From Somniosus microcephalus (lineage: Eukaryota): a stretch of 64,000 nt of DNA. Location of the stretch: contig CM126205.1 in NCBI GenBank assembly GCA_052327205.1, forward strand, positions 19,654,001 to 19,718,000. Direction: 5' to 3'. Of this stretch, positions 12,119 to 56,950 are shown piece by piece; positions within the stretch are counted from its first letter, which is position 1; each line of letters begins with the position of its first letter. Made by a program: the position numbers and the translations under genes. The notes under the pieces were generated by a model. That model saw nothing but the letters and a program-made list of their open reading frames with translations, was not told the origin of the DNA and made no database searches.

Positions 12119-12175
12119 TTGGTTGCACCATTAGTTTGGTCCCAAAACCAAATGTTAGTTTATTGAAATTATTCA
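12119..12175 (-). CDS. TRAJ: J13, family C (native RSS): NNFNKLTFGFGTKLMVQP
   Basis: GTAAGT donor; RSS CACAGCA-12-GCATAAACC. Confidence 0.92.
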
Positions 12176-12489
12176 CACAGCATTACATGCCACTGCATAA
12201 ACCCTTTTACCTGATGCCAAGCATTTTGACTATCTACGAAATCAAATATATGTTATATTTAAACATGATCAATATTCCAGGTTAAATTATTTCCAAGTGC
12301 CCATACTTGCATTATTCCCACATCACTCATGATACCTGAATTACTATATCCTTACTCCAATAAGTAGCGGTATAAATGTCCAATATTCAGGATTAATTTA
12401 GATATGATTTAATACATTGTAGGCTGTGCAGAGAACACAGACATATATGTAAGTAAATAGACAGTCTATAGTTATTAATGAATACCTAC

Positions 12490-14732: not shown

Positions 14733-14792
14733 TTGGCTGCACCATTAGTTTGGTCCCAGATCCAAATATTAGTTTGTAACCTCCAGCAGTCA
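14733..14792 (-). CDS. TRAJ: J17, chimeric C/A: TAGGYKLIFGSGTKLMVQP
   Basis: GT donor; family-A-type RSS CACAGCA-12-GCAAAAACT; orphan signal at 14907-14936. Confidence 0.92.
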
Positions 14793-15214
14793 CACAGCAT
14801 TGCGCCCTTTGGCAAAAACTCCCTTCAGACTAACTTTAATTCATTACTGTTCGCTCTGGCCGTTTTATTTGAATACTTGGTTTGCACATCATAAATTGAG
14901 ATGATGCACAATGCATTACCTGCTAGTACAGAAACCCTTTACCTGATGCCAAGCAGATTGACTATCTACGAAATCAACTGTATGTTATATATATGCATTA
15001 TCAATATTCCAGGTTAAATTATTAACAAATGCCTATTCTTGCATTATTCCCTGAATTATCATATCCATACTCCAAGAAGAAGCTGCATAAATGCGCCAAT
15101 ATTCACCAGTAAGTGAATATTTTGAGAAATGATTTGATACATTGTTAGCAGTTCAGGGAAACCGCACATATATGTAAGTAAATTGACAGTCTATATTTAT
15201 TAATGAATACCTAC

Positions 15215-15277
15215 CTGGCGCCACAGTTAACATTGTCCCTTTTCCAAAGATAAGCTTGCTGCCAATTCCAGCATTCA
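15215..15277 (-). CDS. TRAJ: J18, family A: NAGIGSKLIFGKGTMLTVAP
   Basis: GT donor; RSS CACAGCA-12-ACAAAAACT. Confidence 0.92.
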
Positions 15278-15798
15278 CACAGCATTGCCCCCTTTAACAA
15301 AAACTCCCTTCAGACTAACTTTAGTTCATTGCTGCTCTGTCTGGCGGTTATATTTGATTACTTGATATCACACAATCCCATAATTGTGATACTCTCTGTA
15401 GAAATCGTTTTCAAATGCCCATTGTTATTTTTTAGGCCTGTCTGATTTTATTTTTTTTATTTATATCACCCAAGCAGGACGTACTTTTTTCATTAATACT
15501 CTAAGGCTACCATTTATATATCAGTTCACCAAAACTTCCCAAATGCTTCCCAAGTAGTTCTGAAAGTGGAACCCTCCCTCAGTACTGCGCTGGACTATCA
15601 ACTTGCATTACATGTTTTCGGTATAGAGTGAGGATCCATCTCACAACTTTCTAACTCAAGGATAGGCTGCCAGCAACAGAGCAAAGTTATGATTTCTGAC
15701 ACTTTTCTTCATTTGATCCACATTTTAAATAATTTGTTAACTTTCCTCTCTGTTATGCTCTAACACATAAAACAGACATCCTTAAACATCTCACTTAC

Positions 15799-15858
15799 TT
15801 GGTATAACATTGAGCCTGGTCCCAGACCCAAAGATCAGCTTATCATTACCAAGATTCA
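15799..15858 (-). CDS. TRAJ: J19, family B: NLGNDKLIFGSGTRLNVIP
   Basis: GT donor; RSS CACAGCC-12-GCTAAAACC. Confidence 0.92.
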
Positions 15859-16536
15859 CACAGCCTGATATACTAATGCTAAAACCTTCCCCGGCCAGAC
15901 ATTCCCAGATATTATTTCACTTGTTATTTCTTAAAGAACCATCCGTTTTATGAGTTTTGGAACTTTTATGTTTCCTTTTGAATTTACGATGTGCAAACAG
16001 TTAATATCTTCCATACCAAATAACTTTTACATGGAATTGGCAGCACCGAAACAGGCCATTCAGCTCAACTGGTCTGTGTCCGTGTTTATGCTCCACACAA
16101 GACTCCTCCCTGCCTACTTCATCAAACCTTCTCTGCATATCCGTCTAATCCTTTCTCCCTCATCTGCTTATCTTAAATGCATGTATGCTATTCCCATCAA
16201 CTACTCCATGCAGTAGCGAATTCCACATTCTAACCATTCTCTGGGTGAATAACCTTCTCCTGAATTCTTTATTGGATTGATGAGTAACTATATCATACAG
16301 ATGAGCCCTGTCTCCTCAACAAGTGGAAAGATCTTGCATAAGTCTAACCCCTTCACAATGTTGAAGACCTCTATTAATCACCCTTCAGCCTTGCCTTTCC
16401 GAGAGAACTGATCCCCAGCCTGTTCAGTCTATGCTGATAATTACCTTTAATTGTAACGAACTGACGACACTTATTAACCAAACAATGTTTTGACTGTGAT
16501 CCTCACAATAAAAATATAGGATTAAACTTAACTTAC

Positions 16537-16596
16537 TTGGCTGCACCATTAGTTTGGTCCCAGAACCAAATATTAGCTTGAAACTTCCATCATTCA
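16537..16596 (-). CDS. TRAJ: J20, chimeric C/A: NDGSFKLIFGSGTKLMVQP
   Basis: GT donor; RSS CACAGCA-12-GCAAAAACT. Confidence 0.92.
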
Positions 16597-16956
16597 CACA
16601 GCATTGCGCCCTTTGGCAAAAACTCCCTTCAGACTAACTTTAGTACATTGTTGCTCTGTCTGGCCGTTATGTTTGAATACTTGTTTTGCATATCATAATT
16701 TGAGATTATGCACAATGTATTGCATATCAGTGCAGAAACCCTTAACCTGATGTCAACCATATTGATTATCTATGAAATCAATTGTACTTTATATATATGC
16801 ATTATCAATTATCCAGGTTAAATTATTAACAATCGCCTATTCTTCAATTATTGCATGAATTATCATATCCGTACTCCAGTAAGAAGTGGGCAGTGCAGAG
16901 AACACACTCAGATATGTAAGTAAATAGACAATCTATAGTAATTAATGAATACCTAC

Positions 16957-17019
16957 TTGGCAACACAATTAGCTTTGTCCCTTTTCCAAATATAAGCTTC
17001 GTGTCACCTCCAGCATTCA
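16957..17019 (-). CDS. TRAJ: J21, family A: NAGGDTKLIFGKGTKLIVLP
   Basis: GT donor; RSS CACAGCA-12-GCAAAAACT. Confidence 0.92.
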
Positions 17020-18033
17020 CACAGCATTGCCCCCTTTAGCAAAAACTCCCTTCAGACTAGCTTTAGCGCATTGCTGCTCTTTCTGGTTGTTATATTTGAA
17101 TACTTGGTATCACCCAATCACATAATTTTGATACAATGTGTAGAAACCGTTTTCAAATGGCCATTGTTATTTATTAGGCATCTCTGATTTTTAAAAATAT
17201 ATTCTGTTCATCACTCTAGGATAAGCGTACTTTTTTCATTAATAAGCTAAGGCTACCTTTTATATATTAGTTCACAAGAACTTTCGAATGCTTCCCAAGT
17301 GGTTCTGAAAGTGGAACCCTCCCTCAGTACTGCGCTGGACTATCAACTTGCATTACATGTTTTCGGTATAGAGTGAGGATCCATCTCACAACTTTCTAAC
17401 TCAAGGATGGGTTGCCAGCAACAGAGCAAAGTTATGATTTCTGACACTTCTTTCATTTGATCCACATTTTAATCAATTTGTTGACCTGCTTCTCTTTTGT
17501 GCTTTTACATAGAATTACTTAGAATTGGCAGCACAGAAACAGCCCATTTGGCCCAACTGGTCTGTGCTCGGGTTTATGCTCCACACAAGCCTCCTCCCTC
17601 CCTACTTTATCAAACGCTCTCTGCAGATCCTTCTAATCCTTTCTCCCTCATGTGCTTATCTTAAATGCATCTATGCTATTCCCATCAACTACTCCATGAA
17701 GTAGCAAGTTCCACACTCTAACCACTCTCTGGGTAAGTAACTTTGTTCTGATTTCTTTATTGGATTTATTAGTAACTATATCATACAGATGAGCCCTAGT
17801 TTTGGTCTTCCCCGCAAGTGGAAAGATCGTCTATAGGCCTAACCCCTTCATAATGTTGAAGACCTCTATTAAATCACACTTCAGCCTTGTCTTTCCGAGA
17901 GAACTGATCTCCAGCCCGTTCAGTTTTTGCTGATATTTACCTTTAATTGTAACGAACTGACGATACTTATTAACAAAACAATGTTTTGACTGTGATCATC
18001 ATAACAAAAAATACAGAATTAAACTTCTCTTAC

Positions 18034-18090
18034 TTGGCTGCACCATTAGTTTGGTCCCAGATCCAAATGTTAGTTTTTTGAGATTATTCA
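18034..18090 (-). CDS. TRAJ: J22, family C (native): NNLKKLTFGSGTKLMVQP
   Basis: GT donor; RSS CACAGCA-12-GCATAAACC. Confidence 0.92.
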
Positions 18091-18412
18091 CACAGCATTA
18101 CATACCAGTGCATAAACCCTTTTACCTGATACCAAGCATATTGACTATCTATGAAATGCACGGCATGTTATATTTAAGCATTTTCAATATTCTAGGTTAA
18201 TTATTAACAAGTGCCTATTCTTGCATTAATCCAGCATCACTCATGATACCTGAATTATCATATACATACTGCAATAATAAGCGGCATAAATGTTCCAATA
18301 TTCAGGATGAACTGAACATTTAGAGAAATGATTTGATACATTTTCAGCAGTGCAGAGAACACACACATATATGTAAGTAAATAGACAATCTATAGTTTTA
18401 ATGAATACCTAC

Positions 18413-18475
18413 TTGGCTCCACAGCTAACTTTGTCCCTTTTCCAAAGATAAGCTTGTTGACAACTCCATCATTCA
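18413..18475 (-). CDS. TRAJ: J23, family A: NDGVVNKLIFGKGTKLAVEP
   Basis: GT donor; RSS CACAGCA-12-GCATAAACT. Confidence 0.92.
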
Positions 18476-18996
18476 CACAGCATTGCACCTTTTAGCATAA
18501 ACTCCCTTCAGACTAACTTTAGTTCATTGCTGCTCTGTTTGGCGGTTATATTTGATTCTTGGTGTCACCCAATGCCATAATTGTGATACTATCTGTAGAA
18601 ACCGTTTTCAAATGTCCATTGTTATTTATTAGTTATCTCTGATTAGAAATATATTATGTTTATCACTCAAGCAGGCCTTACTTTTTTCATGAAGAAGCTA
18701 AGGCTACCATTTATATATCAGTTCACCAGAACTCCCTGAAGGCTTCCCAAGTAGTTCTGGAAATGTAACCCTCCCTCAGTACTGTGCTGGACTATCAACT
18801 TGCATTACATGTTTTCGGTATAGAGTGAGGATCCATCTCACAACTTTCTAGCTCGAAGGATGGGCTGCCAGCAACAGAGCAAAGTTATGATTTCTGAAAC
18901 GTCTTTCCCTTTGATCCACATTTTAATTAATTTGTTAACTTTCTTCTCTTTTATGCTCTAACACATAAACCAGACATCCTTAAACATCTCACTTAC

Positions 18997-19056
18997 TTGG
19001 TATAACATTGAGCCTGGTTCCAGATCCAAAGATCAGCTTATTATCAGCAATATTCA
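18997..19056 (-). CDS. TRAJ: J24, family B: NIADNKLIFGSGTRLNVIP (nonamer split by an insertion)
   Basis: GT donor; CACAGCC-12-ACTAAACGA; the rest of the nonamer context (ctaaaaccttcccc) is displaced to ~19207. Confidence 0.85.
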
Positions 19057-19081
19057 CACAGCCTGATATACTAATACTAAA

Positions 19082-19206
19082 CGATAGCAAAATACTGCGG
19101 ATGTTGGAAATCCGAAATAACAACAGAAAATGCTGGAAAAACCCAGCAGGTCAGGCAACATCCGTGGAGAGAAATTTGAGTTGACGTTTTGGGTCGAACC
19201 CTTCTT
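19082..19206. mobile_element. Single-arm copy of the element at 1880-2100, inserted into the J24 nonamer
   Basis: agcaaaatactgcggatg..cagcaggtcaggcaacatc similar to 1884-2000; ctaaa present on both sides. Confidence 0.75.
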
Positions 19207-19872
19207 CTAAAACCTTCCCCAGCCAGACATTCCCAGACATTGCATCACTTGTTATTTCTTAAAGAACCATCCGTATTATCAGTTTTGAAACTTTTATCTT
19301 TCCCTTTGAATTTATGATGTGCAAACAGTTAATATCTTCCATACCAAATAAATTTAAATAGAATTGGCAGCACAGAAACAAACCATTCGGCCCAACTGGT
19401 CTGTTCCCGGGTTTATGCTACACACAAGCCTCCTCCCTGCCTACTTTATCTCACCCCCTCTGCATATCCTTCTAATCCTTTCTCCCTCATTTACTTATCT
19501 TAAATGCATCTATGCTATTCCCATCAATCACTCCATGTAGTAGCGAGTTCCACATTCTAAGCACTCTCTGGGTACATAACTTTCTCCTGAATTCTTTATT
19601 GGATTTATTAATGATTATATCCTACAGAGGAGCCCTAGTTTTGGTCTCCCCAACAAGTGTCAAGATCTTCTACAAGTCTAACCCCTTCATAATGTTGAAG
19701 ACCCCTATTAAATCACCCTTCAGCCTTCTCTTTCCCAGAGAACTGATCCCCAGCCTGTTCAGTCTTTGCTGATAATTTCCTTTAATTGTAACGAACTGAC
19801 GATACTTATTAACAAAACAATGTTCTGACTGTGATCATCATAATATAAAATACAGAATTAAACTTCTCTTAC

Positions 19873-19929
19873 TTGGCTGCACCATTAGTTTGGTCCCAGA
19901 TCCAAATGTCAGTTTATTGAGGTTATTCA
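19873..19929 (-). CDS. TRAJ: J25, family C (native): NNLNKLTFGSGTKLMVQP
   Basis: GT donor; RSS CACAGCA-12-GCACAAACC. Confidence 0.92.
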
Positions 19930-20252
19930 CACAGCATTACATACCAGTGCACAAACCCTTTTCCCTGATGCCAAGCATATTGACTATCTATGAAATGAAC
20001 TGTATGTTGTATTTAAGCATTATCAATATTCCAGGTTAATTATTAACAAGTGCCTATTCTTGCATTAATCCAGCATCAGTCATGACACCTGAATTATCAT
20101 ATCCATACTCCAATAATAAACGGCTTAAATGTTCCAATATTCAGGATGAACTGAACATTCAGAGAAATGATTTGATACATTGTAGGCAGTTCAGAGAACA
20201 TACACATATATGTAAGTAAATGGACAGTCTATAGTTATTAATGAAAACCTAC

Positions 20253-20315
20253 TTGGCTCCACAGTTAACTTTGTCCCTTTTCCAAAGATAAGCTTAACTC
20301 CAGCTCCATCATTCA
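20253..20315 (-). CDS. TRAJ: J26, family A: NDGAGVKLIFGKGTKLTVEP
   Basis: GT donor; RSS CACAGCA-12-ACAAAAACT. Confidence 0.93.
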
Positions 20316-21093
20316 CACAGCATTGCGCCCTTTAACAAAAACTCCCTTCAGACTAACTTTAGTACATTGCTGCTCTGTCTGGCGGTTATATTTGAATACT
20401 TGGGATCACTCAATCCCATTACTTTGAAACTATCTGTACAAACCACTTTAAATGACCGTTGAGACTTATTATGCATAAATGACTTTTTAGAATTTTTATT
20501 CTGTTTATAACCCAAGCATGACTTATTTCTTGTGCATTAAGAAGCTAGTCCACCATTTATATATCAGTTTTAATTATAGAGCGGGATCCACTTCACAACT
20601 TTCTAACTCGAAGGATGGGCTAACAATAGCTGAGCAAACCTAGGATTTCTGACACCTCTCTCCCAATGTCAGTCGGCTGGTTCATTAATGAAAGATTAGA
20701 TTGTTCTATTACAGTCATGTGCCTTTATTGGCCTGTAGTTAACGTCAATAGCTGGCAATTAGTTTCAAGATGATTGTAAGCATTGTAGTGTTTAATTGAA
20801 GATTATAATGCTGGCACTAATCCTGCATTATGATATCCATACTCCAATATCATGTTCAATTCAGATAATCATTTTAGGTTAGTAAGGTGCATAACGGCAG
20901 ACAATTGACTGCACTGATCAGAACCATCACTCATGATACCTGAATGATCATACCCATACTCCAATAAGAAATAATAAATGTTTAGGAGTAATTGACCATT
21001 TAGAGAAATGATTTGATACATTGTATGCAGTGCAGAGAACACACCCATATATGTAAGTAACTAGAGAGTCTATAGTTATTAATGAATACCTAC

Positions 21094-21156
21094 TTGGCTC
21101 CACAGTTAACTTTGTCCCTTTTCCAAAGTTAAGCTTGTTGCCAGCTCCAACATTCA
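21094..21156 (-). CDS. TRAJ: J27, family A: NVGAGNKLNFGKGTKLTVEP (weak RSS)
   Basis: GT donor; RSS CACAACA-12-GCAATAACT. Confidence 0.88.
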
Positions 21157-21676
21157 CACAACATTGCGCCCTGTAGCAATAACTCCCTTCAGACTAAGTT
21201 TAGTGCATTGCTGCTCTGTCTGGCGGTTATATTTGATTCCTGGTATCACCCAATGCCATAATTGTGATACTCTGTGGAGAAACCTTTTTCAAATGCCCAT
21301 TGTTATTTATTAGGTATATATATATTTTTTAAACATTCTGAACATCAATCAAGCTTAAGTTACTTTTTTCATTAATAAGCTAAGGCTACCATTTATACAT
21401 CAGTTAACGAGAACTCTCCAAATGCTTCCGAAGTAGTTCTGAAAATGTAACCCTCTCTCAGTCGTGTGCTGGACTATCAACTTGCATTACATGTTTTCGG
21501 TATGGATTGAGGATCCATCTCACAACTTTCTAACACAAGGATGGGCTGCCAGCAACAGAGCAAAGATATGATTTCTGACACTTTTCTCCATTTGATAAAA
21601 TATCAATTAATTTGTTAACTTTCTTCTCTTTTATGCTCTAGCACATAACACAAACATCCTTAAACATCTAACTTAC

Positions 21677-21736
21677 TTGGTATAACATTGAGCCTGGTCC
21701 CAGAGCCAAAGATCAGCTTATTACCAGCAACATTCA
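21677..21736 (-). CDS. TRAJ: J28, family B: NVAGNKLIFGSGTRLNVIP
   Basis: GT donor; RSS CACAGCC-12-ACTAAAACC. Confidence 0.92.
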
Positions 21737-22436
21737 CACAGCCTGATATGCTAATACTAAAACCTTCCTCAGCCAGACATCCCCAGATATTTCATCACTT
21801 GTTATTTCTTAAAGAACCATCGATTTTTGAGTTAAGTTGTGGAATGTTTACATTTCCCTTCAAACTTATGGTGTGCATACAGTTAATATCTTCCATATCA
21901 AATAGCTTTTACATAGAATTACATAGAATTGGCAGCACAGAAATAACCCATTCGGCCCAACTGGTCTGTGCCCGGGTTTATGCTCGACAAAAGCCTCCTC
22001 CCTCCCTACTTTATCAAACCCTCTCTGCATATCCTGCTAATCCTTTCCCCGTCATGTTGTTATCTTAAATGCATCTATGCTATTCCCATCAACTACTCCA
22101 TGTAGTAGCGAGTTCCACACTCTAAGCACTCGCTGGGTAAATAACTTTCTCCTGAATTCTTTATTGGATTGATTAGTGACTATCTCCTATTGGTGACTCC
22201 TAGTTTTGATCTCCCCAATAAGTGGATAGATCTTCTATAATTCTAACCCCTTCATAAAGTTGAAGACCTCTATTAATTCACCCTTCCGCTTTCTATTTCC
22301 CAGATAACTGATCCCCAGCCTGTTCAGTCTTTGCTGATAGTTACCTTTAATTTTAACGAACTGACGATACTTATTAACAAAACAATGTTTTGACTTTGAT
22401 CATCACAATAAAAATACGGAATTAAACTTCACTTAC

Positions 22437-22496
22437 TTGGCTGCACCATTAGTTTGGTCCCAGATGCAAATGTTAGTTTGTAACCTCCATCATTCA
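22437..22496 (-). CDS. TRAJ: J29, chimeric C/A with FASG variant: NDGGYKLTFASGTKLMVQP
   Basis: GT donor; RSS CACAGCA-12-GCAAAAACT. Confidence 0.88.
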
Positions 22497-22921
22497 CACA
22501 GCATTGCGCCCTTTGGCAAAAACTCCCTTCAGACTAACTTTAGTTCATTACTACTCTTTCTGGCCGTTATGTTTGAATACATGGTTTGCACATCATAAAT
22601 TGAGATGATGCACAATGCATTACCCGCCCGTGCAGAAACCCTTCACCTGATGCCAAGCAGATTGACTATCTACGAAATCAACTGTCCGTTATATATATGC
22701 ATGATGATCAATATTCCAGGTTAAATTAGAAACAAATGCCTATTCTTGCATTATTCCCTGAATGATCATATCCATACTCCAATAAGAAGCTGCAGAAATG
22801 CTCCAATATTCAGGATGAACTGAATATTTAGAGAAATGATTTGATACATTGTGGGCAGTGCAGAGAACACACACACATATATAAGGAAATAGACAGACTA
22901 TAGTTATTAATGAATACCTAC

Positions 22922-22984
22922 TTGGCTCCACAGTTAACTTTGTCCCTTTTCCAAAGGTAAGCTTATAGTTAGCTCCAGCATTCA
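22922..22984 (-). CDS. TRAJ: J30, family A: NAGANYKLTFGKGTKLTVEP
   Basis: GT donor; RSS CACAGCA-12-GCAAAAACT. Confidence 0.93.
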
Positions 22985-23771
22985 CACAGCATTGCGCCCT
23001 TTAGCAAAAACTCCCCTCAGACTAACTTTAGTACATTCCTGCTCTGTCTGACGGTTATATTTGAATACTTGTTATCACTCAATCCCATTATTGTGAAACT
23101 ATCTGGACAAACCATTTTAAATAACCATTGATAATTATTATGCATAAATGACTTTTAAAGTTTTTTATTCTGTTTATAACCCCAGCATGACTTATTTCTT
23201 GTGCATTAAGAAGCTATGTCTACCATTTATATATCAGTTTTAATTATAGAGCGGGATCCACTTCGCAACTTTCTAACTCAAAGAGTGGAGTGACAAAAAC
23301 TGATCAAACCTAGGATTTCTGACACTTCTCTCCCAATGTCAGTCGGTTGGTTCATTAATGAAAGCTTAGGTTGTTCTATTACAGTCATATGTATTTATTG
23401 TCCTGTAGTTAACGTCAATAGCTGGCAATTAGTTTCAAGGTGATTGTAAGCATTAGAGTCTTTAATTAAAGATTATAATGCTGGCAATAATCCTGAATTA
23501 TGATATCCATACTCCAATATCATGTTCAATTCAGATAATCATTTTAGTTTAATAAGGTGCATAATGGCAGACAATTGACTGCACTGATCAGAACCATCAC
23601 TCATGATACCTGAATTATCATATCCTTACTCTAATAATAAATAATAAATGTTCCAATATTTAGGAGTAATTGAACATTTAGAGAAATGATTTGATACATT
23701 GTAGGCAGTTCAGTGAACATACACATACATGTAAGTAAATGGAGAATCTATAGTTATTAATGGATACCTAC

Positions 23772-23834
23772 TTGGCTCCACAGTTAACTTTGTCCCTTTT
23801 CCAAAGATAAGCATTGCACCCTTTAACAAAAACT
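23772..23834 (-). pseudogene. TRAJ: J31, family-A pseudo-J: 5' codons and most of the heptamer deleted (LIFGKGTKLTVEP remains)
   Basis: gataagc is joined directly to attgcaccctttaacaaaaact; AGC microhomology at the join; spacer and nonamer intact. Confidence 0.9.
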
Positions 23835-24333
23835 CCCTTCAGACTATCTTTAGTACATTGCTGCTCTGTCTGGCGGTTTTATTTGAATATTTGCTATCAC
23901 TGAATCCCATTATTGTGAAACTTTCTCTACAAACCATTTTAAATGACCATTGAAAATTATTACGCATATATGACCTTTTAACATTTTTACACTGTTTGTA
24001 ACCCAAACATGAATTATTTCTTGTGCATTAAGAAGCTAAAGCTACCATTTCTATATCAGAACACCAGAACTCGCTGAATGCTTCCCAAGTGGTTCTGAAA
24101 GTGGAACCCTCCCTCAGTGCTGCGCTGGACTATCAACTTGCATTACATGTTTTCGGTATAGAGTGAGGATCCATCTCACAACTTTCTAACTAGAAGGATG
24201 GGCTGACAACAACAGAGCAAAGTTATCAGTTCTGATATCATTTTAATTTGATCTACATTTTAATTAATTTGTTGACCTGCTTCTCTTTTGTGCTCTAACA
24301 CATAAAACAGACATCCTTAAACATCTCACTTAC

Positions 24334-24393
24334 TTGGTATAACATTGAGCCTGGTCCCAGATCCAAAGATAAACTTATTATTACCAGGATTCA
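24334..24393 (-). pseudogene. TRAJ: J32, family B with broken RSS: NPGNNKFIFGSGTRLNVIP
   Basis: Open frame and donor, but the signal reads ttcacaataactaatactaaaacc, about 8 bp shorter than paralogs (at most a 6-bp spacer). Confidence 0.82.
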
Positions 24394-25068
24394 CAATAAC
24401 TAATACTAAAACCTTCCCCAGCCAGACATTCCCAGACATTACATCTCTTGTTATTTCTTAAAGAACCATCCGTTTTTTGAGTTTTGGAACATTTATCTTT
24501 GCCTTTGGATTAATGATGTGCAAGCAGTTAATATCTCCCATACCAAATAACTTTTACATAGAATTACATAGAATTGGCAGCACAGAAACAAACCATTCAG
24601 CCCAACTGGTCTGTGCCCGGGTTTATGCTCCACACAAGCCTCCTCCCTCCCTACTTTATCAAACGCTCTCTCTGAATATCCTTCTAATCCTTTCCCCGTC
24701 ATGTGCTTATCTTAAGTGCATCTATGCTATTCCAATCAACTACTCCATGTAGTAGCGAGTTCCACATTCTAACACTCTCTGGGTGAATAACTTTCTCCTG
24801 AACTCTTTATTGGATTGATTAGTAACTATAGCATACAGATGAGCCCTGTCTCCCCAACAAGGGGAAAGACCTTCTATAAGTCTAACCCCTTTAGAAGACC
24901 TCTATTAATTCACCCTTCAGCCTTCTCTTTCCGAGAGAACTGATCCCCAGCCTGTTCAGTCTTTGCTGATAGTTACCTTTAATTGTAACGAACTGACGGT
25001 ACTTATTAACAAAACAATGTTTTGACTGCGATCATCACAATAAAAATACAGAATTAAACTTCACTTAC

Positions 25069-25128
25069 TTAGCTGCACCATTAGTTTGGTCCCAGAACCA
25101 AATATTAGTTTGTAACCTCCATCATTGA
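25069..25128 (-). CDS. TRAJ: J33, chimeric C/A: NDGGYKLIFGSGTKLMVQL
   Basis: GT donor; RSS CACAGCA-12-GCAAAAACC. Confidence 0.9.
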
Positions 25129-25550
25129 CACAGCATTGCACCCTTTGGCAAAAACCCACTTCAGACTAACTTTAGTTCATTACTGCTCTTTCTGGCCGTT
25201 ATGTTTGAATACTTGGTTTGTACATCATTAATTCAGATTATGCACAATGCATGACCTGCCCGTGCAGAAACCCTTTACCTGATGCCAAGCAGATTCACTG
25301 TCTACGAAATCAACTGTACGTTATATATATGCATTATCAATATTCCAGGTTCAATTAGAAACACATGCCTATTCTTGCATTATTCCCTGAACTATCATAT
25401 CCCTACTCAAATATGACGTGGCATAAATGTTCCAATATTGAGGCATAATTGAATATTTCGAGAAATTATTTTATACATTGTCAGCAGTGCCGAGAATACA
25501 CACATATATGTAAGTAAATAGACAGTCTAGAGTTATTAATGAATACTTAC

Positions 25551-25613
25551 TCGGCTCCACAGTCAACTTTGTGCCATTTCCAAAGGTAAGCTTATTGAAA
25601 CCTCCATCATTCA
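25551..25613 (-). CDS. TRAJ: J34, family A: NDGGFNKLTFGNGTKLTVEP
   Basis: GTAAGT donor; RSS CACAGCA-12-GCAAAAACT. Confidence 0.92.
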
Positions 25614-26132
25614 CACAGCATTGCCCCCTTTAGCAAAAACTCCCTTCAGGCTAACTTTAGTACAGTGCTGCTCTGTCTGGCGGTTATATTTGAATACTTG
25701 GGATCACTCAATGCCATAATTGTGATATTATCTGTAGAAACCGTTTTCAAATGCCCATTGTTATTTATTATGTATCTATGATTTAAAGTATATTATTTTT
25801 ATCACCCAAGCAGAACTTACTTTTTTCATTAATAAGCTAAGGCAACCATTTATATATTAGATCACCAGAACTCGCTGAATACTTCTGAAAGTTCTGAAAG
25901 TGGAACCCTCCCTCAGTAGTGTGCTGAACTATCAACTTGCATTACATGTTTTAGGTATAGAGTGAGGATCCATCTCACAACTTTCGAACTCAAGGATGGG
26001 CTGCCAGCAACAGAGCAAAGTTGTGATTTACGTCACTTTTATCTATTTGATCCAAATTTTCATTAATTTGTTGACCTGCTTCTCTTTTATGCTCTAACAC
26101 ATAAAACAGGCATGTTTAAACATCTCACTTAC

Positions 26133-26192
26133 TTGGTATAACATTGAGCCTGGTCCCAGATCCAAAGATAAGCTTATTATTACCAACATTCA
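26133..26192 (-). CDS. TRAJ: J35, family B: NVGNNKLIFGSGTRLNVIP
   Basis: GT donor; RSS CACAGCC-12-ACTAAAACC. Confidence 0.92.
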
Positions 26193-26888
26193 CACAGCCT
26201 GGTATACTAATACTAAAACCTTCCCAGGCCTGACATTCCCAGACATTACATCACTTGTTATTTCTTAAAGAACCATCCGTTGTTTGAGTTTCGGAACTTT
26301 TATCTTTCCCGTTGAATTCATGATCTGCAAGCAGTTAATATCTTACATACCAAATAACTTTTACATAGAATTACATAGAATTGGCAGCACAGAAACAACC
26401 CATTCGGCCCAAGTGTTCTGTGCCCGGGTTTATGCTCCACAAAAGCCTCCTCCCTGCCTACTTTATGTAACCCTCTCTGCATATCCTCTAATCCTTTCCC
26501 CCCTCATGTGCTTATCTTAAATGCATCTATGCTATTCCCATCAATCACTCCATGTAGTAGCAAGTTCCACATTCTAACATTCTCTGGGTAAAAACATTTT
26601 TCCTGATTTCCTTATTGGATTTATTAATGACTATATCATACAGATGAGCCCTAGTTTTGGTCTCCCCAACAAGTGGAAAGATGTTCTATAAGTCTAACAC
26701 TTTCATAATGTTGAAGACCGCTATTAAGTCACCCTCCAGCCTTCGGTTTCCCAGAGAACTGATCCCCAGCCTGTTCAGTCTTTGCTGCTAGTTACCTTTA
26801 ATTGTAACGAACTGATGATGCTTATTAACAGAACAATGTTTTGACTTTGATCATCAAAATAAAAAGTACAGAATTAAACTTCTCTTAC

Positions 26889-26948
26889 TTGGCTGCACCA
26901 TTAGCTTGGTCCCAGATCCAAATGTTAGTTTGTAACCTCCAGCATTCA
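26889..26948 (-). CDS. TRAJ: J36, chimeric C/A: NAGGYKLTFGSGTKLMVQP
   Basis: GT donor; RSS CACAGCA-12-GCAAAAACT. Confidence 0.92.
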
Positions 26949-27372
26949 CACAGCATTGCGGCCTTTGGCAAAAACTCCCTTCTGACTAACTTTGTTTCAT
27001 TACTGCTCTTTCTGGCCGTTATGTTTGAATACGTGGTTTGCACATCATTAATTGAGATTATGCACAATGCATGTCCTGCCCGTGCAGAAACCCTAAAACT
27101 GATGCCAAGCAGATTGACTGTGTACGAATTCAACTGTACGTTATATATATATGCATTATCAACATTCCGGGTTAAAATAGCAACAATTGCTAAATTTTGC
27201 CTTATTCCCTGAATTATCATATCGATACCACATTACGAAGTGGCATAAATGTTCCAGTATTCAGGAGTAATTGATCATTTAGAGAAATGATTTGGTACAT
27301 TGTAGGCAGCGCAGAGAACGCACGCATATATGTAAGTAAATAGACAGTCTATAGTTATTAATGAATACCTAC

Positions 27373-27435
27373 TTGGCTCAACAGCTAACTTTGTCCCTTT
27401 TCCAAATATAAGCTTGGTGGCACCCCCAACATTCA
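27373..27435 (-). CDS. TRAJ: J37, family A: NVGGATKLIFGKGTKLAVEP
   Basis: GT donor; RSS CACAGCA-12-GCAATAACT. Confidence 0.92.
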
Positions 27436-27957
27436 CACAGCATTGCGGCCTTTAGCAATAACTCTCTTCAGACTAACTTTAGTTCATTTCTGCTCTGTCT
27501 GGCAGTTATATTTGATTCTTGGTATCACCCAATCCCATAATTGTGATGCTATCTGTGGAAACCGTTTCAAATGCCCACTGTTATTTATTAGGCATATCTG
27601 ATTTTAATAAAAATATTCTGTTCATCACTCAAGCTTAACTTACTTTTTTCATTAAAAAGCTAAGACTACCATTTATATATCAGATCACCAGAACTCGCTG
27701 AAGGCTTCCCAAGTAGTTCTAAAAGTGGAGCCCTCCCTCAGTACTGCGCTGGAATATCAACTTGCATTACATGTTTTCGAATAGAGTGAGGATCCATCTC
27801 ACAACTTTCTAACTCGAAGGATGGGCTGCCAGCAACAGAGCAAAGTTATGATTTCTGTCACTTTTCTCTATTTGATCCACATTTGAATTGATTTGTTGCC
27901 CTGCTTCTCTTTTGTGCTCTAACACATGAAACAGACATCCTTAAACATCTCACTTAC

Positions 27958-28017
27958 TTGGGATAACACTGAGCCTGGTCCCAGTTCCAAAGATCAGCTT
28001 AGTATTACCAAGATTCA
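27958..28017 (-). CDS. TRAJ: J38, family B: NLGNTKLIFGTGTRLSVIP
   Basis: GT donor; RSS CACAGCC-12-ACTAAAACC. Confidence 0.92.
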
Positions 28018-28701
28018 CACAGCCTGATATACTAATACTAAAACCTTCCCCAGCCAGACATTCCCAGACATTTCTGCACTTGTTATTCCTTAAAGAACCA
28101 TCCGTTTTATGAGTTTTGGAACTTTTATCTTTCTTTTCAATTTAAGATGAGCAAACAGTTAATATCTTCCATATCAAATAACTTTTACATGTAATTACAA
28201 CTGACATCACAGAAACAGGCCATTCAGCCCAAGTGTTCGCTGTCCGTGTTTATGCTCCACACAAGCCTCCTCCCTCCCTACTTCATCAAACCTTCTCTGC
28301 ATATTCTTCAAATGCTTTCTTCCTCATGTGCTTATCTTAAATAAATCTATTCTATCCCCATCAACTACTGCATGTAGTAGCAAGTTCCACATTCTAACCA
28401 CTCTCTGGGTGAATAACCTTCTCCTGAATTCTTTATTGGATTGATGAGTAACTATATCATACAAATGAGCCCTGTCTTCCCAACTAGTGGAAAGATCTTC
28501 TATAAGTCTAACCCCTTTATAATGTTGAAGACCTCTATTAATCACCCTTCAGCCTTCTCTTTCCCAGAGAACTGATCCCCAGCCTGTTCAGTCTTTGCTG
28601 ATAGTTACCTTTAATTGTAACGAACTGACGATACTTATTAACAAAACAATGATTTGACAGTGATCATCACAATAAAAACTACAGAATTAAACTGCACTTA
28701 C

Positions 28702-28761
28702 TTGGCTGCACCATTAGTTTGGTCCCAGATCCAAATGTTAGTTTGAAACCTCCTTCAGTCA
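28702..28761 (-). CDS. TRAJ: J39, chimeric C/A: TEGGFKLTFGSGTKLMVQP
   Basis: GT donor; RSS CACAGCA-12-GCAAAAACT. Confidence 0.92.
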
Positions 28762-29183
28762 CACAGCATTGCACCCTTTGGCAAAAACTCCTTTCAGAGT
28801 TTCTTTAGTTCATTACTGCTCTTTCTGGCAGTTATATTTCAATACTTGGTTTGCACATCATAAATTGACATTATGCACAATGCATTACCTGCCAGTGTGG
28901 AAACCCTTTACCTGAGGCCAAGCAGATTGACTCTCTACGAAATCAACTGTACGTTATATATATGCATTATCAATATTCCAGGTTCAATTAGAAACAAATG
29001 CATAATCTTGCATTATTCCCTGAAGTATCATATCCCCACTCCAATAAGAAGCAGCATAAATGTTCAAATATTGAGGCATAATTGAACATTTCGAGAAATT
29101 ATTTGATACATTGTCAGCAGTGCCGAGAACACACACATATATGTAAGTAAATAGACAATCCATAGTTATTAATGAATACCTAC

Positions 29184-29246
29184 TCGGTTCCACAGTTAAC
29201 TTTGTCCCTGTTCCAAAGATAAGCTTGTTGCCAATTCCATCATGCA
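29184..29246 (-). CDS. TRAJ: J40, family A: HDGIGNKLIFGTGTKLTVEP
   Basis: GT donor; RSS CACAGCA-12-GCAAAAACT. Confidence 0.92.
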
Positions 29247-29760
29247 CACAGCATTGAACCCTTTAGCAAAAACTCCTTTCAGACTAACATTAGTACATTC
29301 CTGCTCTGTCTGGCGGTTATATTTGAATATAACCCAATCCCAGTCCCATAATTGAGATACTATGTGTAGAAACCGTTTCGAATGCCTACTCTTATTTATT
29401 AGGTATCTCTGATTTAAAAAATATATTCTGTTTATCGCTCAAGCAGGGCTTAGCTTTTTCATTAATAAGCTAAAGCTACCATTTATATATCAGTTCACCC
29501 GAATTCCCTGAATGCTTCCCAAGTAGTTCTGAAAATGTAACCCTCCCTCAGTAGTGCACTGGACTACCAACTTGCATTACATGTTTTCGTTGAGGATCCA
29601 TCTCACAGCTTTCTAACTCAAGGATTGGCTGCCAGCAACAGAGCAAAGTTATGATTTCTGACAATTTTCTCCATTTGATCCACATTTTAAGTAATTTGTG
29701 GACCTGCTCCAGTTTTGTGCTCTAACACATAAAACAGACATCCTTAAACATCTCACTTAC

Positions 29761-29820
29761 TTGGTATAACATTGAGCCTGGTCCCTGTTCCAAAGATCAG
29801 CTTATTATTACCAAGATTCA
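29761..29820 (-). CDS. TRAJ: J41, family B: NLGNNKLIFGTGTRLNVIP
   Basis: GT donor; RSS CACAGCC-12-ACTAAAACC. Confidence 0.92.
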
Positions 29821-30521
29821 CACAGCCTGATATACTAATACTAAAACCTTCCCCAGCCAGACATTCCCAGACATTATGTGACTTGTTGTTTCTTAAAGAA
29901 CCATCTGTTTTTTGAGTTAAGTTGTGGAATGTTTACATTTCCCTTTGAATTTATGATGTGCAAACAGTTAATGTCTTCCATACTAAATAACTTTTACATA
30001 GAATTACATAGAATTGGCAGCACAGAAACAACCCATTCGGCTCAACTGGTCTGTGCTCGACATTATGCTCCACACAAGCCTCCTCCCTCCCTACATTATC
30101 AAAACCTCTCTGCATATTCTTCTAATCCTTTCTCCCTCATGTTGTTATCTTAAATGCATCTATGCTATTCCCATCAACTACTCCATGTAGTAGCGAGTTC
30201 CACTTTCTAAGCACTCTTTGGGTAAATAACTTTGCCCTGAATTCTTTATTGGATTTATTAGTAACTATATCATACAGAGGAGCTCTAGTTTTGGTTTCCT
30301 CAACAAGTGGAAAGATCTTCTATAAGTCTAACCCTTTCATAATGTTGAAGACCTCTATTAATTCACCCGTCAGCCTTCTCTTTCCTAGAGAACTGATCCC
30401 CAGCCTGTTCAGTCTTTGCTAATAGTTACCTTTATTTTAACGAACTGACGATGCTTATTAACAAAACAATGTTTTGACTGTGATCATCATAATAGAAAAT
30501 ACAGAATTAAATTTCTCTTAC

Positions 30522-30581
30522 TTGGCTGCACCATTAGTTTGGTCCCAGATCCAAATGTTACTTTGAAACCTCCATCAGTCA
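30522..30581 (-). CDS. TRAJ: J42, chimeric C/A: TDGGFKVTFGSGTKLMVQP
   Basis: GT donor; RSS CACAGTA-12-GCAAAAACT. Confidence 0.92.
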
Positions 30582-30941
30582 CACAGTATTGCGCCCTTTG
30601 GCAAAAACTCCCTTCAGACTAACTTTAGTTCATTGCTGCTCTTTCTGTCCGCTATGTTTGAATACATGGTTTGTACATTATAATTTGAGATTATGCACAA
30701 TTCATTACATGCCAGTGCAGAAACCCTTTACCTGATGTCCACCATGTTGATTATCTATGAAATCAACTGTACGTTATATATATGCATTATCAATATTCCA
30801 GGTTAAATGATTAACAAATGCCTATTCTTCAATTATTGCATGAATTATCATATCCATACTCCAATAAGAAGTGGGCAGTGCAGAGAACACACTCAGATAT
30901 GTAAGTAAATAGACAATCTACAGTTATTAATGAATACCTAC

Positions 30942-31004
30942 TTGGCAACACAATTAACTTTGTCCCTTTTCCAAATATAGGCTTCGTGGCACCTCCAGCA
31001 TTCA
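30942..31004 (-). CDS. TRAJ: J43, family A: NAGGATKPIFGKGTKLIVLP
   Basis: GT donor; RSS CACAGCA-12-GCAAAAACT. Confidence 0.9.
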
Positions 31005-31614
31005 CACAGCATTGCCCCCTTTAGCAAAAACTCCCTTCAGGCTAACTTTAGAGCATTGATGCACTTTCTGGAGGTTATATTTGAATACTTGGTATCACCC
31101 AATGTGATAATTGTGAGGCTATCTGCAGAATCAGTTTTCAAATGGCCATTGTTACTTATTAGGTATCTCTGATTTTTAAAAATATATTCTGTTCATCACT
31201 CAAGGATAAACGTACTTTTTTCATTAATAAGCTAAGGCTACCATTTATATATCAGACCACCAGAACTCCCCGAATGCTTCCCAGGTAGTTCTGAAAGTGG
31301 AACCCTCCCTCAGTACTGCGCTGGACTATCAACTTGCATTACATGTTTTCGGTATAGAGTGAGGATCCATCTCACAACTTTCCAGCTCAAGGATGGGCTG
31401 CCAGCAACAGAGCAAAGTTATGATTTCTGACACTTCTTTCATTTGATCCAAATTTTAATTAATTTGTTGACCTGCTTCTCTTTTGTGCTTTTACATAGAA
31501 TTACATAGAATTGGCAGCACAGGAACAACCCATTCGGCCCAACTGGCGTGTACCCATGTTTATTTTCCACTCAAGCCTCCTCCCTTCATACTTTATCAAA
31601 CGCTCTCTGCAGAT

Positions 31615-31924
31615 CACAGAATCCCCACAGTGCAGATAGAGGTCATTTCGGCCCATCGAGTCTGCACCGACACATATCCCACCCTATCCCCGTAACCCCA
31701 CGTATTTAATCCCCTAACACTAAGGGTCAATTTATCATAGCCAAATCAACCTAACCCGCACATCTTTGGACTGTGGGAGGAAACCGGAGCACCCGCAGGA
31801 AACCCATGCAGACACAGGGAGAATGTGGAAACTCCACACAGACAGTCGCCAGAGGCCGGATTTGAACCCTGGTCCCTGGCCCTGTGAGGCAACAGTGCTA
31901 ACCACTATGCCACTGTGCACCGTG
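31615..31924 (-). mobile_element. tRNA-derived SINE with V-domain-like core (HE1/V-SINE type), nested in the unit CR1 fragment
   Basis: ggactgtgggaggaaaccggagcaccc..cagacacagggagaatgtggaaactccacacagacag core; tRNA-like head at right end; gatc duplicated at both ends; empty site at ~17626. Confidence 0.85.
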
Positions 31925-32331
31925 GATCCTTCTAATCCTTTCTCCTTCATGTGCTCATCCTAAATTCATCTATGCTATTCCCATCAACTACTCCATGAAG
32001 TAGCGAGTTCCACATTCTAACCACTCTCTGGGTAAATAACCGTTTCCTGAATTCTTTACTGGATTTATTAATGACTATATCATACAGATGAGCCCTAGTT
32101 TTGGTCTCGCCAACAAGTGGAGATATCTTCTATAAATCTAACCCCTTCATAATGTTGAAGACCTCTATTAATCACCCTTCAGCCTTGTCTTTCCCAGAGA
32201 ACTGCTCCCCAGCCTGTTCAGTCTTTACTGATAGTTACCTTTAATTGTAACGAACTGACGATACTTATTAACAAAACAATGTTTTGACTTTGATCATCAC
32301 AATAAAAAATATAGAATTATACTTCACTTAC

Positions 32332-32388
32332 TTGGCTGCACCATTAGTCTGGTCCCAGATCCAAATGTTAGTTTAATGAGATTACTCA
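32332..32388 (-). CDS. TRAJ: J44, family C (native): SNLIKLTFGSGTRLMVQP
   Basis: GT donor; RSS CACAGCA-12-GCATAAACC. Confidence 0.92.
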
Positions 32389-32695
32389 CACAGCATTACA
32401 TACCAGTGCATAAACCATTTTACCCGATGTCAGGCATATTGACTATCTACAAAATCAACTGTATGTTATATTTATGCTTTATCAATATTCCAGGTTATAT
32501 TTTATACAAATGCCCATTTTTGCATTATTGCCTGAATTATCATATCCATACTCCAACAAGCAGCGGCATAAATGTTCCAATATTCAGGATTAATTGAACA
32601 TTTACAGAAATGATTTGATACATTGTGGGCAGTGCAGAGAAAACACCCATATATTAAAGTAAATAGACAGTCTATAGTTATTAATGAACACCTAC

Positions 32696-32758
32696 TTGGC
32701 TCCACCGTTAACTTTGTCCCTTTTCCAAATATAAGCTTATCGTTAGCTCCAGAATTCA
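32696..32758 (-). CDS. TRAJ: J45, family A: NSGANDKLIFGKGTKLTVEP
   Basis: GT donor; RSS CACAGCA-12-GCAAAAACT. Confidence 0.93.
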
Positions 32759-33281
32759 CACAGCATTGCGCCCTGTAGCAAAAACTCCCTTCAGACTAAT
32801 TTTAGTACATTCCTGCTCTGTCTGGCGGATATATTTGAATACTTGGGATCACTCAATCCCATTATTGTGAAACATTCTCTACAACCCATTTTAAATGACC
32901 ATTGATAGTTATTAGGCATATATGGCCTTTTAACATTTTACTCTGCTATAACCCAAAACATGAATTATTGCTTGTGCATCAAGAAGCTAAGGCTTCCATT
33001 TATACATTAGATCACCAGAACTCGCTGAATACTTCTGAAAGTTCTGAAAGTGGAACCCTCCCTCAGTAGTGCGCTGGACTATCAACTTGCATTACATGTT
33101 TTCGGTATAGAGTGAGGATCCATCTCACAACTTTCTAACTCAAGGATGGACTGACAGCAACAGAGCAAAGTTATGATTTCTGACACTTTTTTCATTTGAT
33201 CCACATTTTAATTAATTTGTTGACCTGCTTCTCTTTTGTGCTCTAACACATAAAACAGACATCTTTAAACATCTCACTTAC

Positions 33282-33341
33282 TTGGTATAACATTGAGCCT
33301 GGTCCCAGATGCGAAGCTAAGCTTATTATTACCAAGATTCA
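33282..33341 (-). CDS. TRAJ: J46, family B with FASG variant: NLGNNKLSFASGTRLNVIP
   Basis: GT donor; RSS CACAGCC-12-ACTATAACC (weak nonamer). Confidence 0.82.
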
Positions 33342-34037
33342 CACAGCCTGATATACTATTACTATAACCTTCGCCAGCCAGACATCACCAGACATTTCAT
33401 CTCTTGTTATTTCTTAAAGAACCATCCGTTTTATGAGTTTTGGAACTTTTATCTTTCCCTTTGAATTGATGAGGTGCAAAGAGTTAATATCTTCCATACC
33501 AAATAACTTTTACATAGAATTACATAGAATTGGCAGCACAGAAACAGGCCATTCAGCCCAAGTGTTCTGTGCCCGGGTTTATGCTCCACACAAGCCTCCT
33601 CCCTCCCTACTTTTTCTAACCCTCTCTGCATATCCTTCTAATCCTTTCCCCGTCATGTGCTTATGTTAAATGCATCTATGCTATTCCCATCAACTACTCC
33701 ATGTAGTAGCGAGTTCCACACTCTCAGCACTCTCTGGGTAAAAACATTTTTCCTGATTTCTTTATTGGATTTATTAATGACTATATCATACAGAGGAGCC
33801 CTAGTTTTGGTCTCCCCAACAAGTGGAAAGATCTTCTATAAGTCTAACCCCTTCATAATGTTGAAGACCTCTATTAATCACCCTTCAGCCTTCTCTTTCC
33901 CAGAGAACTGATCCCCAGCCTGTTCAGTCTTTGCTGATAGTTACCTTTAATTGTAACGAACTGACGATACTTATTATCAGAACAATGTTTTGACTGTGAT
34001 CATCATAATAGAAAATACAGAATTAAACTTCTCTTAC

Positions 34038-34097
34038 TTGGCTGCACCATTAGTTTGGTCCCAGATCCAAATGTTAGTTTGTAACCTGCAGCATTCA
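34038..34097 (-). CDS. TRAJ: J47, chimeric C/A: NAAGYKLTFGSGTKLMVQP
   Basis: GT donor; RSS CACAGCA-12-GCAAAATCT. Confidence 0.91.
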
Positions 34098-34514
34098 CAC
34101 AGCATTGCGCTCTTTGGCAAAATCTCCCTTCAGACTAACTTTAGTTGAATGCTGCTGTGTCTGGCCGTTATATTTGAATACTTGGTTTGCACATCATAAA
34201 TTGAAATTATGCACAATGCATTACTTGCACAATGCAGAAAACCTTTACCTGTTGCCAAGCGTATTGATTATCTACAAAATGAACTGTACGTTATATATAT
34301 GCATTATCAATGTTCCAGGTTGAATTATTAACAAATGCCTAATCTTGCATTATTGCCTGAATTATCCTATCCATACTCCAAATAGAATAAATGCTCCAAT
34401 ATTTAGGAGTAATTGAACATTTAGAGAAATGCTTTGGTACATTGTAAGCAGTGCAAAGAACGCACTCAGATATGTAAGTAAATAGACAGTCTGAAGTTAT
34501 TAATGAATACCTAC

Positions 34515-38122: not shown

Positions 38123-38179
38123 TAGGTTGCACGATTAGTTTGGTCCCAGATCCAAATATTAGCTCATTGAGACTATTCA
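38123..38179 (-). CDS. TRAJ: J52, family C (native): NSLNELIFGSGTKLIVQP
   Basis: GT donor; RSS CACAGCA-12-GCATAAACC. Confidence 0.91.
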
Positions 38180-38522
38180 CACAGCATTACATACCAGTGC
38201 ATAAACCCTTTACCTGATGCCAAGCATATAGACTATGTACAAAATCAACTGTATGTTATTTTTATAGATTATCAATATTCCAAGTTAAAATATTAACAAG
38301 TGACTCATCTTGCATTATTCCCAGCTTATTTAAATCAATATTAAGTTCAGTCGGTCACACACATTAATGCCACCTCGTTACGGAATGTAAAACTATAGTT
38401 TAATTCTGGCTAGATTTATTTGGTGTCCATTGGCCATCTGTACATTATTTTGACCAAAATTTATAATTTGCTTGCAAACTAATTTGCCTGATTATTTTGT
38501 GTAACTATGATTGAGTTCTTAC

Positions 38523-56441: not shown

Positions 56442-56504
56442 TTGGCTGGACAGTCAGTCTAGTTCCACTTCCAAATGTGAGTTTCCCTACTGATCCAGTA
56501 TTCA
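56442..56504 (-). CDS. TRAJ: J71: NTGSVGKLTFGSGTRLTVQP
   Basis: GT donor; RSS CACAGTG-12-ACAAAATCT. Confidence 0.93.
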
Positions 56505-56884: not shown

Positions 56885-56950
56885 TTGGTACCACATCCAA
56901 TGTAGTCCCTGAGCCAAAGATGAGCTTGTTCCCTGCACCTCCATACGCCA
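56885..56950 (-). CDS. TRAJ: J72: AYGGAGNKLIFGSGTTLDVVP
   Basis: GT donor; RSS CACATCG-12-ACAATAACC. Confidence 0.9.

Follow-up and report, generated by a model that had tools for sequence, protein, structure and literature searches.

How can a new joining (J) gene come to combine the antigen-contact end of one gene family with the framework of another, and what becomes of the recombination signal that is displaced on the way? The question is raised by a stretch of 64,000 nucleotides (nt) from Somniosus microcephalus (GenBank assembly GCA_052327205.1, contig CM126205.1, positions 19,654,001 to 19,718,000), referred to here as the window, which holds at least 78 J-like segments, all on the minus strand, from position 250 to the window end. 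The window is likely the TRAJ cluster of the shark T-cell receptor (TCR) alpha locus, as judged by the number of J segments, their 12-bp recombination signal sequences (RSSs) and a conserved 5′ TG. An earlier note on this DNA had proposed that J genes of one family, C, acquired the RSS module of another, A, by replacement, each leaving an orphan signal with a 14-bp spacer. The analysis described here finds that eight chimeric J genes arose by insertion, that they trace to one event, and that the orphan is the old 12-bp signal, now likely dead.

Anatomy of the chimeric J genes

The framework region 4 (FR4) of family C occurs at 13 sites in the window, five in a native form and eight in a form that bears a family-A cassette, at the positions given in the earlier note. 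When the two are aligned (alignment A1), the cassette form reads as a native unit with 119 extra nt lodged between ...AGTTT and ATTGAG...; the natives show a gap of 119 columns and no C base has been lost. The chimeric genes arose by insertion, and the idea of replacement does not survive this alignment. Gene conversion is an in-register replacement with no net gain, whereas here 119 nt were gained and the recipient tract was kept; the zero loss at the target site is that of a templated insertion. The supposed family-A block within a C J gene is borne out, but as an insertion, and the first 14 nt of the native C J gene are still joined to the orphan signal.

The cassette is made up of 17 nt of codons, a 28-nt RSS and about 60 nt of flank, followed by a final 14 nt of ambiguous origin, and its junctions are uncertain by a few bases of microhomology. 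Its mean identity is 83% to the 27 A units, as opposed to 51% to native C at equal offsets, which upholds the family-A character claimed for this part. The homology to family A begins at the 5′ codons, takes in the signal and ends at about TACTTGG. The chimeric FR4, by comparison, is 93% identical to that of native C. On the far side of the cassette the native context had been said to resume after about 115 bp; in all eight copies the distance between the coding end of the J gene and the start of CACAAT is exactly 115 nt. The orphan region is 79% identical to the native flank over 130 bp, against 48% in shuffles (40 pairs), and the homology on which the idea of a displaced signal hangs is present. 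A tally of flank matches accounts for every unit: 36 matches to the A flank (27 A, one pseudo-A and eight cassettes) and 13 to the C flank (five and eight). A separate candidate, that the family-A flank is a relic J intron with its donor, was rejected, with shuffle counts of 34-595 of 1000 in six units.

The position of the breakpoints also bears on whether germline activity of the recombination-activating gene (RAG) recombinase carried the family-A signal over to the C gene, through a hybrid joint or by putting back a signal-ended fragment. For the immunoglobulin (Ig) light chains of sharks, RAG-like activity in germ cells has been reported (PMC2193156). However, the junctions lie off the heptamer borders: the signal brought 17 nt of A coding sequence with it, and 14 nt of C coding sequence stayed behind on the old signal. 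In addition, both signals are 12-RSSs. Because the breakpoints are not at heptamer borders, this route is considered very improbable.

One event, amplified, with later exchange

In trees, the eight cassettes fall on one side of a branch against the 27 A units (support 95/90), and the eight orphans on one side of a branch against the five natives (100/99). As both form clades and the spacing is identical in all eight, the copies are one event that was then amplified. This sustains the view that a family-A 5′ J and RSS were copied into a family-C J gene to make a new J gene that was subsequently multiplied. It does away with the notion that each orphan marks a separate event.

The left side of the units (intron and FR4) has a different history. 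There the alignment was counted at columns 200-686 only, as J44 carries an extra repeat and others carry deletions further out. Native and chimeric copies are interleaved in this tree, with four changes of form, and the one-change topology appears in 0% of 200 bootstrap trees. The discordance predicted in the earlier note is visible in the tree, but an approximately unbiased (AU) test does not reject a left-side clade of chimeras (p=0.093). Sites that split the edge natives J13 and J52 from all other copies number 11 on the left and one on the right, and sites that split chimeras from natives number none and five (Fisher p=0.001). This asymmetry implies either that J22, J25 and J44 are mosaics or that the orphan derives from a more diverged C copy. 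BLAST searches of the flanks within the window found no reciprocal product and no intermediate unit.

It was also observed that the inner natives J22, J25 and J44 resemble the cassette units on the left side and J13 and J52 on the right, which might mean that crossover within FR4 restored the native form in them.

The orphan signal and its register

The earlier note read the orphan as CACAATG, a 14-bp spacer, and A or G followed by CAGAAACC. This text can be read literally at 14907, 16711, 22611, 25243 and 27063 and is degenerate at 28876, 30696 and 34212, as described; the heptamer register, however, was wrong by two bases. In the alignment, the native TT-CA-CACAGCA-12-GCATAAACC corresponds to TG-CA-CAATGCA-12-GCAGAAACC in the orphan, without a gap in seven of the eight copies. 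The exception is the orphan at 34212, where a 1-nt insertion makes the spacer 13. The 14-bp spacer is the old 12-bp signal read two bases off, because the CAC of that reading borrows CA from the TG start of the old J gene, its first two coding bases. It follows that the spacer puts the orphan in no conflict with the 12-bp rule, contrary to the earlier claim.

What has changed is the heptamer, at positions 3-4 (CACAGCA to CAATGCA), which turns CAC into CAA. According to the portions of the literature consulted, CAC is consistently required for appreciable RAG cleavage (PMC10536018) and the spacer tolerance of the RSS is 12 ± 1 (PMC212687). No orphan among the eight has a CAC with such a spacer: they carry CAA in the 12-bp register, and counted from the shifted CAC the spacer is 14 or 15 nt. 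The signals were scored with a matrix trained on the other signals of the window; family A was among these, a bias towards the cassette signal. In the 12-bp register the orphans score -14.6 to 10.6; for the real signals the family medians are 18.5-22.8 and the minimum is 10.6. Changes from consensus in the spacer are also more frequent in the orphan (13/84 in seven copies, J47 being excluded for its insertion) than in the new signal (4/96; p=0.011). Since the third base of CAC is lost, the orphan is more likely dead than a decoy. The earlier note had left the choice open between a dead signal and a weak decoy, and the first of these now appears the likelier.

A live orphan deserves attention nonetheless. 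The orphan could act as a weak signal, as CACAATG-14 or through cleavage at CAC independent of a nonamer, diverting V joins into non-productive products that the chimeric signal 115 nt on would rescue. The invariance of CACAAT in all eight copies speaks for this, as do the scores of heptamer and nonamer alone at a spacing of 14 (15.9-18.2 in five of the eight). In the parts of the sources seen, mouse TRBJ1-7 and TRBJ1-2 use upstream alternative signals (PMC6857471), and off-target RAG sites always have CAC while the nonamer is often unclear (PMC10536018). However, the shadow reading is not special to the orphans, as a CA precedes the heptamer, and so yields CAC+14, at 69 of the 74 J signals with a CAC heptamer in the window, including all five natives. 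A background scan at a spacing of 14 returned 70 high scorers among 1529 CAC sites, the top twelve of which were all shadows of real signals. When a spacer of 12 or 13 nt is taken from the shifted CAC, the orphans score only -2 to -13. The spacer decays fast (13/84), the shifted reading is partly lost in three of the eight copies, and the conservation of the seven bases amounts to 1/56 changes, too few cells to establish constraint. A live orphan is considered improbable.

There is a hint that the stranded signal was selected against: of the eight fixed orphan changes, three lie in the 16 bases that make up heptamer and nonamer (Fisher p ~0.05), two of these three being adjacent and maybe one event. 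A further candidate, in which V segments would join at the orphan and read through into the J gene to give a long complementarity-determining region 3 (CDR3), was rejected on finding 2-4 stops in the J frame in all eight copies. As a side observation, the orphan changes at 22608-22620 and its paralogues create a 5-bp inverted repeat, ATGCA-CAA-TGCAT, over the old coding end and heptamer, which may be due to chance.

Function and selection

The frame is open and a GT donor is present in each of the eight chimeric J genes, seven of which retain the FGXG motif. Their 12-RSSs have a CAC heptamer in every case and matrix scores of 20.0-23.7, compared with 18.5-20.8 for the natives. Changes from consensus are fewer in FR4 (10/360) than in the flanks (77/1016; Fisher p=0.0009), and the same holds for the new heptamer and nonamer (3/128; Fisher p=0.026); such p-values are rough, as the copies share history and are not independent. 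The five 5′ codons show more changes than the flanks (13/136), and all six distinct variants are non-synonymous. As FR4 and the new signal vary less than the flanks, and the 5′ codons only non-synonymously, the pattern suggests that the chimeric J genes are working genes in use.

The insertion shifts the CDR3 end from an N-N-L-N-K-like sequence to N/T-D/A-G-G-Y/F-K. It is tentatively proposed that a J gene was born by germline shuffling of the CDR3-coding 5′ end and signal of one family onto the FR4 of another. The better-scoring signal and the glycine and aromatic codons might have given the product an advantage, with diversifying selection acting as it was multiplied to eight copies, and with selection first silencing the signal left stranded. 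If so, the array would record both the cause and the order of the signal switch-off and of the replacement of an old J lineage by a new one.

Reads from other sequencing runs

Reads matched to positions 14645-15990 at 85% likeness were obtained from runs X3, X4, X14 and X15 (four of the 18 listed), and no listed run contained half of the words of the query. From X3 (organism B), contigs cover 14753-15046 with 32 differing letters and 14725-14883 with 23; from X4 (organism C), they cover 14747-14876 with 15 and 14879-15025 with 11. Over these four intervals, taken in the same order, the chimeric paralogues of the window differ from J17 at 22-41, 13-18, 11-16 and 10-22 positions. The native units differ from J17 at 76-85 positions in the first interval and 24-33 in the fourth, and the nearest A units at 34 in the second and 25 in the third. 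The X3 contigs span each junction with at least 31 letters per side, and the short sides of the X4 pieces are 29 and 16 letters. Both runs also contain native-type joints. The chimeric form appears to be present in organism B, whose contigs match it better than they match A or native units, and the X4 pieces are suggestive of its presence in organism C. Either organism might be the species of the window itself.

These contigs bear on the concern that the chimeras are an assembly artefact, which arises with any tandem array of similar units. The eight copies are distinct, differing from J17 at 13-18 of 159 bases, and the X3 contigs bridge both junctions (295 nt on the right, 159 nt on the left). 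An artefact is hardly credible.

The RNA runs gave 49 (X14) and 121 (X15) matching reads. Almost all of these lie on a short repeat at 15559-15594, and no J junction is crossed by any of them. Separately, four X14 reads with a single start lie at 15680-15904, over an unspliced family-B J gene with intron and signal; they may be germline transcript or DNA carry-over, and are too few to tell.

Mechanism of insertion

The account preferred here is that a 119-nt family-A block was inserted 14 nt inside a C J gene, likely by one germline, homology-primed copying event, and was amplified by tandem duplication, with the old signal likely dead thereafter. It is regarded as fairly probable. A broken C end would have primed on a neighbouring A J gene, copied 119 nt, and returned at a microhomology, in the manner of a template switch during break repair. 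The left junction would have formed in register, where C and A are homologous in FR4; the right one would be out of register, at the ATTG that the A flank has in common with the coding end of C. Tandem duplication would then have amplified the chimeric unit, and later exchange between units would have reshuffled the left side among native and chimeric copies. An A unit directly follows 12 of the 13 C units, and in six of the eight copies the best cassette match is such a unit (ties included), although the A units are too alike to single out a donor. The product is one codon shorter than the best-matching A unit, implying either a 60-nt A gene as donor or a join that slipped by 3 nt.

Several points weigh against this account. 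Two successive unequal exchanges would leave a sequence that looks no different from that of one template switch. The junction homology (10-11 of the 14 bases before the left junction, ATTG on the right) is short and may be a matter of chance. The final 14 nt of the cassette can be matched to the A flank, given a 3-nt deletion (shuffle p=0.017), and also to the start of a C J gene (p=0.007). Changes in the orphan heptamer and nonamer (6/128) are indistinguishable in frequency from those in the flanks (77/1016; p=0.28), nor do they significantly exceed what constrained DNA would show, and CACAAT is identical in all eight. One chimeric copy has FASG in place of FGXG and one starts with TC instead of TG. 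Lastly, no V-J reads of any family were found in RNA runs X14 and X15 (24% and 31% of each run), a result that is uninformative on use as the positive control failed.

Two successive unequal crossovers or deletions would proceed by an in-register exchange between a C J and an A J gene, followed by joining of the A flank to a diverged C-type J gene at TACTTGG or ATTG; the orphan would be a relic of this second J gene. The resemblance of the 14 nt before the relic to a C J start, the first six bases of which are those of J13 and J52, agrees with such a history. So do the fixed differences between chimeras and natives, all of which lie on the right, as opposed to the edge-versus-rest differences that lie almost wholly on the left. 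Yet two or three events would be needed, of which the window holds no intermediate, and the same 14 nt fit the A flank with one small gap at a raw score of 11 against 2. Later exchange on the left side, as supposed under the templated insertion, accounts for the asymmetry too. The two-step history is possible but rather unlikely.

Organisation of the locus

Signals with a CAC heptamer number 74, and the best nonamer spacing is 12 in every one of them. This set omits four segments: the pseudo-A at 23816 and the B at 24391, both with broken signals, the J gene at 56950 (56885-56950), and one truncated by the window end. The J peptides of the window are of the FGXG type, with 18-22 residues and GT donors. 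A search of the PDB with one family-A peptide gave TCR alpha and delta chains as the majority of the best 60 of 101 matches, which were mostly weak (best E 0.0008). The conserved 5′ TG of the J gene, read as CA on the plus strand, is present at 69 of the 74 signals. This feature is conserved in J-alpha genes of cartilaginous, basal and teleost fishes, according to the part of PMC10322711 consulted.

The tandem array of A, B and C units at 1-40700 is young, and 41200-64000 hold single diverged J genes with near-consensus signals. With X for the cassette form and a for the pseudo-A, and three single J genes omitted, the order of units in the first 40.7 kb is AAAAAAAAAAABCAABXABXACABCAABXAaBXABXABXABXACABXAABCAB. 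Coordinates of the units under study are collected in the table.

Coordinates of chimeric, native and donor-type J units in the window
Feature	Positions	Strand	Details
Chimeric J17 (TAGGYKLIFGSGTKLMVQP)	14733..14792	-	Family-C FR4 14733-14775, family-A 5′ codons 14776-14792, GT donor 14727-14732
J17 12-RSS, working-type, family-A type	14793..14820	-	CACAGCA-12-GCAAAAACT on +
J17 family-A cassette	14776..14894	-	119 nt
J17 orphan	14895..14936	-	Native C J 5′ end 14895-14908, heptamer CAATGCA 14909-14915, 12-nt spacer, nonamer 14928-14936
Copy J20	16537..16740	-	J 16537-16596 (NDGSFKLIFGSGTKLMVQP), cassette 16580-16698, orphan 16699-16740
Copy J29	22437..22640	-	J 22437-22496 (FASG, not FGXG), cassette 22480-22598, orphan 22599-22640
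Copy J33	25069..25272	-	J 25069-25128, cassette 25112-25230, orphan 25231-25272
Copy J36	26889..27092	-	J 26889-26948, cassette 26932-27050, orphan 27051-27092
Copy J39	28702..28905	-	J 28702-28761, cassette 28745-28863, orphan 28864-28905 (nonamer more decayed)
Copy J42	30522..30725	-	J 30522-30581, cassette 30565-30683, orphan 30684-30725 (heptamer CAATTCA)
Copy J47	34038..34242	-	J 34038-34097, cassette 34081-34199, orphan 34200-34242 (1-nt insertion, spacer 13)
Native family-C J13 with 12-RSS	12119..12203	-	Array left edge
Native family-C J22 with 12-RSS	18034..18118	-	
Native family-C J25 with 12-RSS	19873..19957	-	
Native family-C J44 with 12-RSS	32332..32416	-	
Native family-C J52 with 12-RSS	38123..38207	-	Array right edge
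Family-A J (NDGGFNKLTFGNGTKLTVEP) with RSS and flank, representing the donor type	25551..25705	-	Best or tied-best cassette match in 6/8 copies

A number of other features were noted in the array. The pseudo-A (23763-23840) has its 5′ codons and most of its heptamer deleted at a short AGC overlap. In family B, one nonamer is split by an insert of about 125 bp, with ACTAAACGA remaining (19057-19210), and one J gene (24334-24420) has a deletion of about 7 nt spanning heptamer and spacer, so that its signal is likely dead. FASG replaces FGXG in two J genes of different families, at 22437-22496 and 33281-33341. At about 17460 and 31480, two units lack the family-B J gene, the A flank joining the repeat that precedes C directly, and this deletion is common to both. 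Further along, a lone J gene (AYGGAGNKLIFGSGTTLDVVP) with a 12-RSS at 56885-56978 was overlooked by the initial patterns, and the J genes at 56442 and 58586 form a close pair.

Comparison with known systems

Chimeric paralogues formed by ectopic exchange in tandem arrays are a known class. The present array differs from these in that one end is out of register, with a gain of 119 nt and the old signal stranded, and the module moved is a CDR3-coding end with its RSS. Features shared with arrays discussed under birth-and-death versus concerted evolution, as far as the consulted part of bioRxiv 10.1101/2024.09.05.611428 describes them, are the amplification of tandem A-B-C units, pseudogenes and mosaic copies. 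A parallel for the event itself is found in germline insertions by template switching, which, in the portion of Hinch et al. 2023 (PMC7615360) seen, likewise involve a nearby related template, short junction homology and an intact target. That work concerns human meiotic hotspots, whereas the event here is known from its sequence trace.

The TRAJ loci of jawed fishes, in the sections of Giorgetti et al. 2023 (PMC10322711) that were seen, share with the window many J genes with 12-RSSs, FGXG, a fixed donor distance and the 5′ TG. Catshark TRAJ has 66 J genes in 59 kb there, compared with at least 78 in 64 kb here. Those sections cover RSS position and microhomology; J genes of two families and left-over signals are the feature of the present locus. 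A search of 18 of the 19 supplements of that article did not turn up a 15-nt motif of family C. For annotators, the fish J-alpha 5′ TG carries a warning, as it yields a false CAC with 14 bp at almost every signal.

Full-text searches, in which subscription papers were mostly absent, gave no paper that describes chimeric germline J genes or a displaced RSS in its title or the opening of its abstract. The event is real and its molecular mechanism ordinary, but this route to a J gene is apparently undescribed, no description having been found. It offers a traceable birth of a new TCR J lineage, in which the antigen-contact end and signal of one family were joined to the framework of another, beyond duplication and drift. 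Adjacent native and chimeric copies would allow two signals and two CDR3 ends to be compared in repertoires on the same FR4.

Two further systems resemble the locus in part. The Ig genes that sharks carry already joined in the germline (Lee et al. 2000, PMC2193156) also reflect germline restructuring of antigen-receptor segments; their joins are RAG-like, at signal borders, whereas both breakpoints here lie away from the heptamer borders. Mouse TRBJ1-7 and TRBJ1-2, in the part of PMC6857471 consulted, similarly have a second signal-like site shortly 5′ of the J gene. The mouse sites have CAC at a 12-bp spacing and their use has been shown; the shark orphan has no CAC at that spacing and can be traced to the displacement of an older signal.

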